A stretch of DNA of 5,651 nt from a virus: positions 1 to 5,651 of the IMG/VR virus record IMGVR_UViG_3300045988_005604; one strand, 5' to 3'. The notes under the pieces are model-generated. The model did not search any database and was not told the DNA's origin. It worked only from the letters and a program-made list of their open reading frames with translations. Made by a program: the position numbers and the translations under genes. This document shows, in pieces, positions 1,914 to 5,541 of this stretch (its first letter is position 1; each line of letters starts with the position of its first letter).

Positions 1914-1923
1914 ACGTTTATCA

Positions 1924-1966
1924 ACACGCGCGCGCACGCGCGCATAATTGCGCACGTACACGCACG
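1924..1966. repeat. Alternating purine-pyrimidine CG/CA tract with three CGCACG copies; Z-DNA-prone and hairpin-prone in ssDNA
   Basis: Perfect Pu/Py alternation runs over 1924-1946 (23 nt, acacgcgcgcgcacgcgcgcata) and 1949-1966 (18 nt, tgcgcacgtacacgcacg). CGCACG occurs at 1933, 1951 and 1961. Self-complementary CGCGCG blocks can fold on the single-stranded virion DNA. Confidence 0.85.
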
Positions 1967-2010: not shown

Positions 2011-2088
2011 GGAGTGTTGAAATGTTGAATACTATGAATTTCCATCCTTGGAACGATATTTTTTTGCTAATTTTAATGTTGATAATTT

Positions 2089-2097
2089 TGTGGATAA
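2089..2097 (-). promoter_or_regulatory. Perfect consensus DnaA box (TTATCCACA on the - strand; TGTGGATAA on +)
   Basis: Exact 9/9 match to the canonical DnaA box. The expected count in this genome is about 0.04 under uniform composition. It sits within the iteron array, 12 nt after the one-mismatch copy TGTTGATAA (2077-2085). Actual binding is untested. Confidence 0.55.
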
Positions 2098-2152
2098 CTT
2101 GTTGAATTGTTGAAAGTGTAGCAATATGCACAAAACCATTTGTGCAACTTTT

Positions 2153-2161
2153 TGTGGAAAA
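2153..2161 (-). promoter_or_regulatory. Second DnaA-box match (TTTTCCACA, fits the relaxed consensus TTWTNCACA)
   Basis: TGTGGAAAA on the + strand, in the same orientation as the box at 2089. A further one-mismatch box, ATATGCACA, lies on the + strand at 2124-2132. Confidence 0.4.
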
Positions 2162-2229
2162 CCTGTTGAAAGTGTTGAAAGTGTTGAAAATGTAACTAGA
2201 GGCAGTTCGGCAGCTAGCCGGAAAGTCAC

Positions 2230-3447: not shown

Positions 3448-3904
3448 CTTCAGAGAGACTGCAACAGCAAAGCCCACAGAGGCCGGAGAGACCATCAGAC
3501 GGACATACCTTTGGCAGCTCAACGAGAAGGGCGAAAAGGTACTGACGCTTGACCAAATCATCGACCAGCAGGCGGAAATCGACAGCTATCTAGAAGAGAC
3601 CAAGCTTGAAAACATCATCCGCCGAACATCCATCGACCCTGACCTTGCGGCTAGACTGGTGCCAGACATAGGTGGCGGGCTTCAGGACGCAACTGAGATG
3701 CCGGAGAATCTTATGGAACTTCAGAACATCATGCTCCGGGCAGAGCAAATCTGGGATGAAATCCCAAAGGAAATCAAGCTCAAGTTTGATAATGACGTTG
3801 ACAAGTTCGTTGCAAGCTTTGGCACTATCGACTGGGCAAAAAAACTGGGCATCTATCAGGAAGAAGAGCTTGAAGAGCCTAAAAAGGAGGAAACCACTGA
3901 ATGA
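3425..3904 (+). CDS. VP3: Internal scaffolding protein VP3, 159 aa
   Basis: ATG 3425 has SD AAGGAG (3409-3414) and overlaps the end of VP5 by 23 nt. The acidic protein carries EMPENLMELQNIMLRAEQIWDEIPKEIKLKFDNDVDKFVASF, which resembles the gokushovirus scaffold motif (...P..I...F.N....F). Its stop overlaps the VP1 start as ATGA (3901-3904). The ORF-track start at 3377 lacks an SD. Confidence 0.8.
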   Translation: MAYRSVSNFRETATAKPTEAGETIRRTYLWQLNEKGEKVLTLDQIIDQQAEIDSYLEETKLENIIRRTSIDPDLAARLVPDIGGGLQDATEMPENLMELQNIMLRAEQIWDEIPKEIKLKFDNDVDKFVASFGTIDWAKKLGIYQEEELEEPKKEETTE

Positions 3905-5541
3905 ACAGGAACAAAGACGCAGGGTTTAACCAAGTTCCGCGACTGGACATTACGCGAAGTCGCTTCAAACGGCGGCAGGACGTAAAGCTCACGCTCAATG
4001 CTGGACAGCTTATTCCGTTCTATGTAGATGAAGTACTCCCGGGCGACACCTTCAGCATCGACCAAGCAGCAATTATCCGTATGACAACCCCTATCTTCCC
4101 GGTTATGGACAACTGCCACATGGATATTTACTACTTCAGCGTGCCGTGCCGTATCCTCTGGGAGCACTTTAAGCGCTTTATGGGTGAAAACGACTCTGGA
4201 CCGTGGGCCCTAATTCAAGAGTACACCATTCCACAGGTCAAAGTAACTGGCACAGCCGACAAGCCGGCACCTTATGAAGGAAGCATCATGGACTACATGG
4301 GCATTCCTACCAAGGTGAGCAAAGGAGCTGATAGTGCATTCAGCGTTAATGCACTGCCATTCAGAGCCTACGCTATGATTTGGCAGGAGTGGTTCCGAGA
4401 CCAGAACGTGGACAATCCGGCCATCAACAGCACCACGGACGCAACCGTAAACTATACGGACGATGAAACCAAGGGCATGGACGCAACAACTCCTGACCTT
4501 GAGTATATCCTTAAGAACGCATACACAGGCGGCAGACCACTGCCGGTAAATAAATACCACGACTACTTCACATCGGCTTTACCTTCCCCTCAGAAAAGCC
4601 CCAGCGTACAACTTCCATTAGAAGGAAACGCTCCGATATTCGGATACAAAGAAACCACAAGAACAAATATAAGCACTTCAGCGCTAATCGAAAATCTTAA
4701 AAACGAAAACAGCCCGCTCGGCGTTATGGGAACCAAACCATCCGGAGAAGAAGTGTTCCTGGGTGCAAGAATGGATAGAGTAACATCCGCAACGATCAAT
4801 CAGCTGAGGCAAGCATTCCAGGTACAGAAGTACTATGAACAGCTGGCACGAGGCGGCAGCCGCTACCGCGAGATGATTTACAGTTTGTTCCACACCAGGA
4901 TTTCGGACAAAACTGTACAGATTCCGGAATATCTGGGTGGTACGCGTATCACCATCAACATGAGTCAGGTCATCCAGACCAGCAGCACGACTACAGAGAG
5001 TCCGCAGGGCAACACCGCAGCAATAAGTGTTACGCCGTACAATGGCAGCATGTTCACCAAGAGCTTCGAAGAGCACGGCTATGTTATCGGAGTGTGTTGT
5101 ATCCGGCATGACCATACCTACCAGCAGGGCTTGGAGCGTATGTGGAGCCGCAAGACTAATCTGGATTTCTATTATCCCGTCTTCGCAAATCTGGGCGAGC
5201 AGGCCATTCTGAAAAAGGAGCTGTATCTCACTGGTACGAGCACCGACAATCAAGCCTTTGGATATCAGGAAGCTTGGGCAGAGTACCGGATGAAACCAAA
5301 CCGCATCAGCGGCAAGTTCCGGTCAAATGCAAAAGGAACTCTGGACAGCTGGCACTACGGCGACAACTACAAGGAGGTTCCGACCCTGAGTCAGGCATGG
5401 ATGAAGGAGGGAGACTCCGAAATTCAGAGGACTCTGGCCGTGGACAACGAGCCTCAGTTTATCATAGATACCGTCATCGACAATACGTCCGTAAGACCTA
5501 TGCCTATGTACAGCGTTCCGGGTCTCGTGGATCATCACTAA
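3901..5541 (+). CDS. VP1: Major capsid protein VP1 (phiX174 F-protein family), 546 aa
   Basis: SD AAGGAGG (3884-3890). The N-terminal region FNQVPRLDITRSRFKRRQDVKLTLNAGQLIPFYVDEVLPGDTF...YYFSVPCRILWEHFKRFMGEN, together with HDYFTSALPSPQK and TINQLRQAFQVQKYYEQLARGGSRY, are hallmark gokushovirus VP1 blocks. Confidence 0.97.
   Translation: MNRNKDAGFNQVPRLDITRSRFKRRQDVKLTLNAGQLIPFYVDEVLPGDTFSIDQAAIIRMTTPIFPVMDNCHMDIYYFSVPCRILWEHFKRFMGENDSGPWALIQEYTIPQVKVTGTADKPAPYEGSIMDYMGIPTKVSKGADSAFSVNALPFRAYAMIWQEWFRDQNVDNPAINSTTDATVNYTDDETKGMDATTPDLEYILKNAYTGGRPLPVNKYHDYFTSALPSPQKSPSVQLPLEGNAPIFGYKETTRTNISTSALIENLKNENSPLGVMGTKPSGEEVFLGARMDRVTSATINQLRQAFQVQKYYEQLARGGSRYREMIYSLFHTRISDKTVQIPEYLGGTRITINMSQVIQTSSTTTESPQGNTAAISVTPYNGSMFTKSFEEHGYVIGVCCIRHDHTYQQGLERMWSRKTNLDFYYPVFANLGEQAILKKELYLTGTSTDNQAFGYQEAWAEYRMKPNRISGKFRSNAKGTLDSWHYGDNYKEVPTLSQAWMKEGDSEIQRTLAVDNEPQFIIDTVIDNTSVRPMPMYSVPGLVDHH

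Follow-up and report, generated by a model that had tools for sequence, protein, structure and literature searches.

A conserved module of DnaA-type boxes and TAG triplets in gokushoviruses resembles the unwinding half of a bacterial chromosome origin

The genome analysed here, IMG/VR record IMGVR_UViG_3300045988_005604 (5,651 nt; this whole stretch is referred to as the window), belongs to a gokushovirus and carries a dense array of TGTTGAA repeats downstream of the replication gene VP4. Judged by its layout, the array supplies the DnaA boxes of a noncoding module of ~230 bp, at about 1967-2190, in which an AT-rich tract, a run of TAG triplets, a short spacer and several sets of boxes follow one another as in the basal unwinding system (BUS) of bacteria. 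The array is very probably a DnaA-box/origin-unwinding module, and we consider it likely, with the proposed role included, that the module is a copy or an imitation of that half of the host origin in which the chromosome is unwound, i.e., the 'incC/oriC2' region between dnaA and dnaN with its BUS. The type of element, an origin module of DnaA boxes and DnaA-trios, is familiar; what is new is where it is found, in a lineage of rolling-circle single-stranded DNA (ssDNA) phages. A chromosomal-type DnaA unwinding module is unexpected there, and it suggests that such phages recruit the bacterial initiator DnaA. The architecture of the module, its conservation, its collinearity with the host chromosomal origin (oriC) and its independence of orientation are read from the alignments described below; from the same sequence evidence we infer binding of the module by DnaA and a use of the opening in cis.

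The repeat array and the anatomy of the module

TGTTGAA occurs eight times in the window, seven times on the + strand and once on the - strand, as found in agreement by direct reading and by a pattern search. The + strand copies start at 2015, 2023, 2100, 2108, 2164, 2173 and 2182 and all fall within 2015-2188 (174 nt), a clustering far above the expectation of 1.0 copy per genome derived from 200 dinucleotide-preserving shuffles, none of which (0/200) reached eight copies. A first-pass annotation made from the sequence alone had listed these seven same-strand copies together with the variant units TGTTGATAA (2077), TGTGGATAA (2089), TGTGCAA (2141) and TGTGGAA (2153), and all its coordinates proved correct. 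The tandem 9-mer in three copies that it described was recovered by Tandem Repeats Finder as TGTTGAAAG x3.3 at 2164-2193 with 95% matches, and a DnaA-box scan returned the one perfect box (2089-2097, the exact complement of TTATCCACA) and the one relaxed box (TTTTCCACA at 2153-2161, which fits TTWTNCACA) that it had named. Its view of the units as a graded series of DnaA boxes was borne out, as far as the boxes are concerned, by the match to host oriC; the unwinding module and the collinearity with oriC had escaped it, as had the (TAG)n block and AT-rich tract directly 5' of the first box doublet and a 64-nt higher-order duplication, in which 2086-2106 and 2150-2170 are 90% identical.

The module begins with a tract of 25 nt consisting of A and T only (1967-1991), the proposed duplex-unwinding element (DUE), and continues on the + strand with seven T-N-G triplets in phase (1990-2010; TTG TTG TAG TCG TAG TAG TAG). 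Four of the five triplets of 1996-2010 are TAG, and because 5'-TAG-3' equals 3'-GAT-5', the TAG triplets count as DnaA-trios, three of them being consecutive at 2002-2010. The tetranucleotide GGAG (2011-2014), which equals the 4-bp 'GC-rich' spacer of the BUS, leads to the proximal tandem pair of DnaA boxes on the + strand (2015-2031), TGTTGAAAT and TGTTGAATA, with starts at 2015 and 2023, the second of them 12 nt from the trios. Beyond a variable spacer of ~45 nt (2032-2076), distal set 1 (2077-2116, + strand) comprises boxes at 2077, 2089 (the perfect TGTGGATAA), 2100 and 2108, spaced by 12, 11 and 8 nt. Distal set 2 (2153-2190, + strand) is a duplicate of set 1, by way of the 64-nt duplication, and has boxes at 2153 (TGTGGAAAA), 2164, 2173 and 2182, the last three forming the tandem 9-mer. 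Altogether, 10-11 DnaA-type boxes lie within about 175 bp.

Between the two distal sets there is a palindrome (2127-2148; TGCACAAA/TTTGTGCA) that includes the conserved unit TGTGCAAC at 2141-2148. With this unit counted in, set 2 spans 2141-2190 and its units are spaced by 12, 11, 9 and 9 nt. In the 49 module versions aligned below, this site has G at position 4 in 45 and matches the box core in none (0/49); it may be a weak DnaA box, deliberately so, or the site of another factor. It stands 12 nt before the box at 2153, the same phasing as from 2077 to 2089.

Comparison with the basal unwinding system

A BUS has been described as at least three DnaA-trios (NAN, consensus 3'-GAT-5') with unwinding beyond the trios, accompanied by one or more DnaA boxes, usually a tandem pair, at most 16 bp from the first trio, ~4 GC-rich bp included; the distance to the better box peaks at 10-13 bp and up to two box mismatches are allowed (Pelliciari 2021, PMC8287927). 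In B. subtilis the BUS (Richardson 2016/2019; Pelliciari 2021) is located in incC between dnaA and dnaN, and the proximal pair and the distal set are both required (Richardson 2019, PMC6669920), and C. difficile and other clostridia have the same layout in oriC2, the dnaA-dnaN spacer (PMC7561715). The window contains the same elements in the same order: an AT-rich element beyond the trios (1967-1991), at least three consecutive trios, the GGAG gap followed by boxes at 2015 and 2023 within the described distance, and, besides the proximal pair, the distal sets at 2077-2116 and 2141-2190. It differs from incC and oriC2 in its setting, a 5.6-kb rolling-circle ssDNA phage, in which the module is located away from dnaA and dnaN, between VP4 and the small-gene/VP5-VP3-VP1 block, and has no oriC1 partner; it differs also in the box variant, TTTTCMACA, with its 10-11 copies in so short a space, and in a phage-specific CTTGTTG extension of the trio phase. 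The module probably functions like, or copies, oriC2 and is not the chromosomal origin itself.

The host chromosome counterpart

For the bacterial side, one genome per species was scanned for three closely spaced TGTTGAA, and a profile built from the phage modules was then run against the loci. The host taxa named are a minimum set, and all host results given here and below hold among the matches listed (L numbers are our handles for loci and contigs). The best match was a locus from an uncultured member of the Oscillospiraceae (L159; E = 1.5e-16, positions 8-184), and several of the matched loci cover most of the profile length. VP1 and VP4 were searched for in the bacterial loci and neither is encoded in any of them; no prophage copies were found. 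In L159, the array is placed between dnaN and dnaA (both Pfam-confirmed), with rnpA, yidC and jag beyond. Both dnaA and dnaN were present in L159, L176, L181 and L208 (Oscillospiraceae/Ruminococcus/Clostridiales), and in each of these 12-33 boxes fill the spacer between the two genes.

Taken on the matching strand, the order within the host spacers is an AT-rich tract, (TAG)4-5, GGGGG or GGTA, TGTTGAAAC TGTTGAAAAC, a spacer and a cluster of TGTTGAAAA. In a six-way alignment, the phage module was collinear with the host spacers through trios, GC spacer, box pair, spacer and distal cluster; the length of the spacer between proximal and distal boxes is the same in phage and host, and the proximal pair of the window matches TGTTGAAAC TGTTGAAAAC both in position and in sequence. 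The box matrices are also alike, with T 0.75 and G 0.22 at position 4 in the phages versus T 0.83 and G 0.17 in the hosts, and with A-rich positions 7-9 in both. On this comparison, the variant TGTKGAAAA (= TTTTCMACA) is the box type used in oriC of Oscillospiraceae/Ruminococcus bacteria, and since the phage boxes share it, these bacteria are the likely hosts of the module-bearing phages. The sequence would thereby assign hosts (Oscillospiraceae/Ruminococcus-type Clostridia) to gut gokushoviruses of humans and animals, a large group most of whose members lack a known host.

The DnaA proteins of the same four loci (in L159, 2330-2680 on the - strand) read RDHSTIVY in the recognition helix of domain IV, where the DnaA of E. 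coli (1j1v), B. subtilis (8btg) and Aquifex reads RDHTTV(L/I)H. This may be a change of specificity that suits the TTTTCAACA box. In the E. coli DnaA-DNA structure, the contacts with bases are made, as we take it, at the Thr and His positions of the recognition helix. The predicted lineage-specific box TTTTCAACA together with the T->S and H->Y replacements would constitute a natural experiment in initiator-origin co-evolution.

Two side observations concern the host comparison. CTTGTTG (1989-1995) is conserved at >0.9 in the phages and adds TTG TTG, two triplets that lack the central A, in phase with the trios. None of the host oriC loci examined has it, and at this place the window itself reads TTTG instead of CTTG. 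A Mesoaciditoga metagenome-assembled genome (Thermotogota; L250, ~2630-2770) contains (TAG)4-GGTAC-TGTTGAA with ~16 boxes nearby in a locus without dnaA, so that the TGTTGAA-type box may not be limited to Clostridia.

Conservation and inversion among gokushoviruses

In a whole-genome megablast, 2075-2190 was the only DNA-level match of the window to many otherwise diverged gokushoviruses (82-88% identity), and a more sensitive search with 1856-2375 returned 36 phage records. Module alignments were made for 13 genomes and then for 49 distinct versions. The aligned module is about 215-230 nt long and has a fixed layout, which opens with an (A)CTTGTTG-TAG-NNG-TAG-TAG-TAG block, and conservation is at least 0.9 at the trios and boxes, compared with 0.3-0.7 in the spacers, the one at 2032-2076 included. 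Among relatives picked by VP1 similarity alone (54-88% identity), 69 of 75 possess the module, the misses being short contigs, and with all fetched loci pooled it was found in 154-159 distinct microvirus contigs.

The single elements are retained to a similar extent. At least three exact TAG repeats are present in 45 of the 49 distinct modules, and the other four have TAG x2 or TAG-NAG/TAA-TAG; the gap from trios to box measures 4 nt in 38/47, and the second proximal box starts 12-13 nt from the trios across the modules. The 20 nt located 5' of YTTGTTG have a median A+T content of 80% (49 modules). The core NGTKGAW is kept at the box sites of set 1 in 40-49 of 49 modules, and in other clades the proximal pair reads WGTGGAAAA/AGTTGAAAA. 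The site corresponding to 2089 is TGTTGAAAA in 32/49 modules and TGTGGATAA in 11/49, versions with G and with T are about equally common at sites 2015 and 2153, and TGTGGATAA, TGTGGAAAA and TGTTGAAAA substitute for each other at homologous sites among the phage genomes. Since TGTGGATAA alternates with TGTTGAAAA at the same sites, the canonical-looking and the 'iteron' forms are interchangeable variants of one site type.

The first-pass annotation had named a lack of conservation of the array as the result that would count against it; instead, position, spacing and sequence are kept down to a VP1 identity of 41%, while the flanking spacers diverge. The same data effectively refute neutral slippage expansion without function, to which we give next to no credence, even though the perfect 9-mer in three copies and the last unit (site 2182), the copy number of which varies among relatives, are what slippage would produce.

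The orientation of the module relative to the genes is not fixed. The trios are on the coding strand in 149 of 159 genomes, and in the other ten the module is inverted. Eight of these are members of a single clade (VP1 identity about 41%) that carries the module between VP2 and VP4. The remaining two are clean in-place inversions of only the ~215-nt module (MG945447.1, our L012, 3012-3249; and L324, 4986-5195), where the flanking GC-rich segments and the adjacent hairpin remain in the orientation of the genes. A reduced form was found in KT264799.1 (L436), a 5,179-nt gokushovirus, which has deleted the distal box sets and the downstream noncoding DNA; all that is left, at 400-460, is the AT tract, (TAG)5, GGGAG and the box pair, directly followed by coding sequence.

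These comparisons also bear on the suggestion of the first-pass annotation that the repeats are bound by the phage Rep, VP4, so that the TGTTGAAA units would be its iterons, as in the iteron-plus-stem-loop origins of HUH replicons. VP4 is indeed an HUH-type Rep, and the direct repeats lie about 110-280 nt from a conserved stem-loop, an arrangement shared with the geminivirus, circovirus and pMV158 origins. In those origins, however, the iterons are Rep-specific and fixed in orientation, whereas the phage repeats match host oriC and can flip: they recur in the same architecture in bacterial dnaA-dnaN spacers devoid of VP4 and VP1, the motif stays constant without co-variation over VP4 identities of 32-100%, and the orientation to the hairpin is reversed in 10/159 genomes. 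We find this explanation hardly credible. Theta origins such as P1 oriR, pSC101, F and RK2 combine iterons for their own Rep with a few accessory DnaA boxes and use host DnaA; in the phage module, by comparison, all repeats are DnaA-type boxes, trios are present, and there is no theta-type initiator gene.

No more plausible is a role of the repeats as operators, at which a small phage regulator or a host transcription factor (Spo0A, with the 0A box TGTCGAA, or an OmpR-family protein) would control the downstream promoters. The array is found ~130 nt upstream of a strong promoter (2319-2347), and one inverted TGTTGAA (2615-2621, - strand) stands in the leader of promoter P2, where the first-pass annotation had placed an operator. 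About 5 of the 20 relatives that can be aligned here retain this copy; with one TGTTGAA per genome expected by chance, it is probably a chance occurrence. C at box position 4 has a frequency of 0.00 in 539 sites (11 sites x 49 modules), so the boxes, which lack the TGNCGAA core, are not Spo0A 0A boxes; in the inverted clade the opposite end of the module faces the next gene, and the host counterpart is oriC and not a promoter region. The related proposal of autoregulation by a small protein encoded downstream was not supported. The 61-aa open reading frame (ORF) that spans the repeats (2126-2311) was rejected as a conserved gene, since 58 of the 100 genomes that could be assessed lack an ORF of at least 50 aa there and other clades read the 9-mers in a different frame. 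Repeats of the OmpR/PhoP/WalR/ArcA response-regulator type, parS and partition-type repeats were considered as well and dropped on the match to host oriC.

The hairpin adjacent to the module

Directly after the VP4 stop, the + strand can form a hairpin with a 19-bp stem (1865-1907; fold z = -6.6). The loop has the conserved sequence (C)TATCAAG(T/A)A, replaced by ATAGACAAGG in a divergent clade, and the stems covary, with compensatory changes in >50 distinct versions. The hairpin keeps the orientation of the genes in all ten genomes in which the module is inverted, and it is found on the trio/AT-rich side of the module in 147 of 149 genomes, whichever way the module is oriented. It lies outside the DnaA module and is a candidate for the nick-site hairpin of VP4 (HUH) and/or for the terminator of VP4. 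To our knowledge, no cis element has been defined so far for Gokushovirinae, and Microviridae replication is presented in textbooks as Rep-driven; the module and the adjacent hairpin are two concrete candidates for such elements. A likeness to the core of the phiX174 origin, seen in AACTTG within CTTGTTG and in ACTTGATA on the strand complementary to the hairpin loop, was taken as no more than a lead.

Between the hairpin and the AT-rich element there is an alternating purine-pyrimidine GC-rich tract, CACGCGCGCGCACGCGCGCATAATTGCGCACGTACACGCACG (1925-1962). It is prone to form Z-DNA, and similar tracts of the (CG/CA)n type hold this position in most relatives.

Proposed mechanism and alternatives

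In the mechanism that we propose, host DnaA-ATP would occupy the boxes on the double-stranded replicative form (RF) and would oligomerise from the proximal pair onto the trio strand, by which the AT-rich tract would be opened. The opened tract would face the conserved hairpin with the candidate VP4 nick site, and the opening would give the HUH protein VP4 a single-stranded substrate and/or let the host helicase load, with which RF replication would start. The titration of DnaA from the host origin by the multicopy RF would then be an unavoidable side effect. The module probably acts on the duplex RF, because it is inverted in ten genomes, its ssDNA fold is no better than that of shuffled sequence (z = -1.16 for 1988-2192), and the pairing of 1918-1926 with 2077-2085 is lost in relatives.

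This pairing had been put forward by the first-pass annotation, as the isolated inverted box TTATCAACA at 1918-1926 (+ strand) and the unit at 2077-2085 make up a 9-bp perfect inverted repeat. It could serve an origin for the complementary strand on the incoming ssDNA, where a hairpin-held DnaA box would nucleate a primosome as in the 'A-site'/ABC primosome. DnaA-box hairpins are said to prime ssDNA, according to Masai and Arai, and the trios are on the coding strand, presumably the packaged one, in 149/159 genomes. The upstream box is, however, not conserved even in close relatives: it is lost already at about 92-93% VP4 identity, and L078, L104 and L123 read TTTATCAGCG in its place. Moreover, the module is on the opposite strand in ten genomes and its fold is unremarkable, and the 13-genome alignment shows no hairpin that keeps its place in the spacers between the boxes. 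The conserved, unusually stable structure in one orientation that characterizes sso, pas, the G4 ori and the A-site was thus not seen, and we regard this explanation as very unlikely. The signals of phiX174, G4 and M13 (the gene-A origin, the PriA assembly site, and primase or RNA polymerase hairpins) are strand-specific and structured as ssDNA. These phages share with the window a small ssDNA genome in need of host factors (within the family Microviridae), but their signals are not known to be DnaA-box/trio modules.

Another alternative is that the module is a DnaA sink only, i.e., that 10-11 boxes on each multicopy RF absorb host DnaA in trans, block chromosomal initiation and thereby free replisome resources. 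The high number of boxes and the duplication of the distal sets are in line with it, orientation independence is compatible with it, and plasmids with the incC of B. subtilis have an inhibitory effect on initiation at the chromosome (Moriya 1988, cited in PMC6669920). A sink needs boxes only, yet the trios, the 4-nt spacer, the register and the AT tract are the best-conserved columns; KT264799.1 has lost the distal boxes and kept the unwinding core; and the unwinding side faces the hairpin in 147/149 genomes. We judge a sink without further function improbable. As the trios and their register are conserved and KT264799.1 retains only the unwinding core, we lean, with somewhat more than even confidence, towards opening in cis as the selected role, rather than titration only. 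In either case, DnaA would offer a possible route to host takeover or to plasmid-like persistence.

The module may be compared also with oriC plasmids or minichromosomes and the incC plasmids of B. subtilis, which are likewise extrachromosomal circles with DnaA elements of an origin and for which competition for DnaA is expected. Those are laboratory constructs, whereas the phage module is natural, conserved in a lineage and situated beside an HUH Rep origin. It is conceivable, if rather doubtful, that the RF replicates as a DnaA-controlled minichromosome from a captured oriC2-type module, coupled to the host cell cycle, in a non-lytic carrier state. If true, this would be a third lifestyle of Microviridae besides lytic growth and XerCD-mediated lysogeny; VP4 rolling circle would serve only for progeny ssDNA, and a plasmid-like carrier state could help to explain the long persistence in the gut.

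Several points weigh against the proposed origin-unwinding role. The phage retains an intact HUH Rep, so that there is no obvious need for a second initiator. The AT tract is short in many relatives, with a median uninterrupted A/T run of 12 nt (49 modules), and in L012 and L324 the in-place inversion leaves 355-380 nt between the hairpin and the unwinding side, hence a tight coupling of module and hairpin is not obligatory. Both proximal boxes have three mismatches to the E. coli TTATCCACA and would fail the published BUS search rule (at most two); they are 1-2 mismatches from TGTKGAAAA, the lineage motif deduced from the host dnaA-dnaN spacers, and their status as DnaA boxes therefore depends on that motif. 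The TTTTCAACA variant, in turn, is one that we infer from four metagenome-assembled genomes among the matches listed. Finally, unwinding of the C. difficile oriC2 in vitro required the presence of oriC1 too (PMC7561715), so an oriC2-like phage module may not be a self-sufficient origin.

In the literature searched, the coverage of which was incomplete, we found nothing on gokushoviruses or Microviridae in connection with DnaA, DnaA boxes or oriC, and nothing on DnaA-trios in phages or on relevant oriC-like DnaA-box elements of phages.

Genome setting and occurrence in other phages

The window represents a complete circular gokushovirus (Microviridae) genome with a terminal redundancy of 55 nt, which gives a unit length of 5,596 nt, and its closest records by megablast are gut gokushoviruses from the faeces of human, pig and monkey. 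All genes are carried on the + strand. VP2 runs across the circular junction as far as 835; VP4 (836-1855) shows HUH-type motifs and a match to the Pfam family Rep_ORF2-G2P; and small ORFs, VP5, VP3 and VP1 (3901-5541) follow in this order. The sole long noncoding stretch (1856-2366) begins after VP4 and contains the repeat array. An Rfam scan of the whole window gave no relevant match, and ssDNA folding of the GC-rich segment 2193-2282 was no better than that of shuffled sequence; of the segments folded, the hairpin after VP4 was the single one to stand out.

The strong promoter at 2319-2347 is of the sigma-70 type with an extended -10 element (TTGACT-17-TGgTACAAT). Around four 11-bp repeats resembling AAAAATCTTGA occupy 2279-2347 and reach its -35 element; they may be a UP-element-like or regulatory repeat.

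BUS-like modules with canonical boxes, consisting of (TAG)3-6, a GC spacer, a pair of TGTGGATAA and distal clusters of TGTGGATAA, were also observed in viral contigs other than microviruses: L365 (1150-1300), L332 (650-800), L370, L401 (330-500), L407 (3000-3200), L384 (12950-13150) and L380 (3650-3800). Viral contigs of ~95 kb that matched the pattern of (TAG)3 plus box were set aside as single coincidental matches in coding sequence. One of the BUS-like viral modules adjoins a RecT-like gene, and dnaA and dnaN are absent from these loci. As such modules occur in unrelated double-stranded DNA phage contigs, the use of DnaA-trios by phages may extend beyond the gokushovirus lineage.

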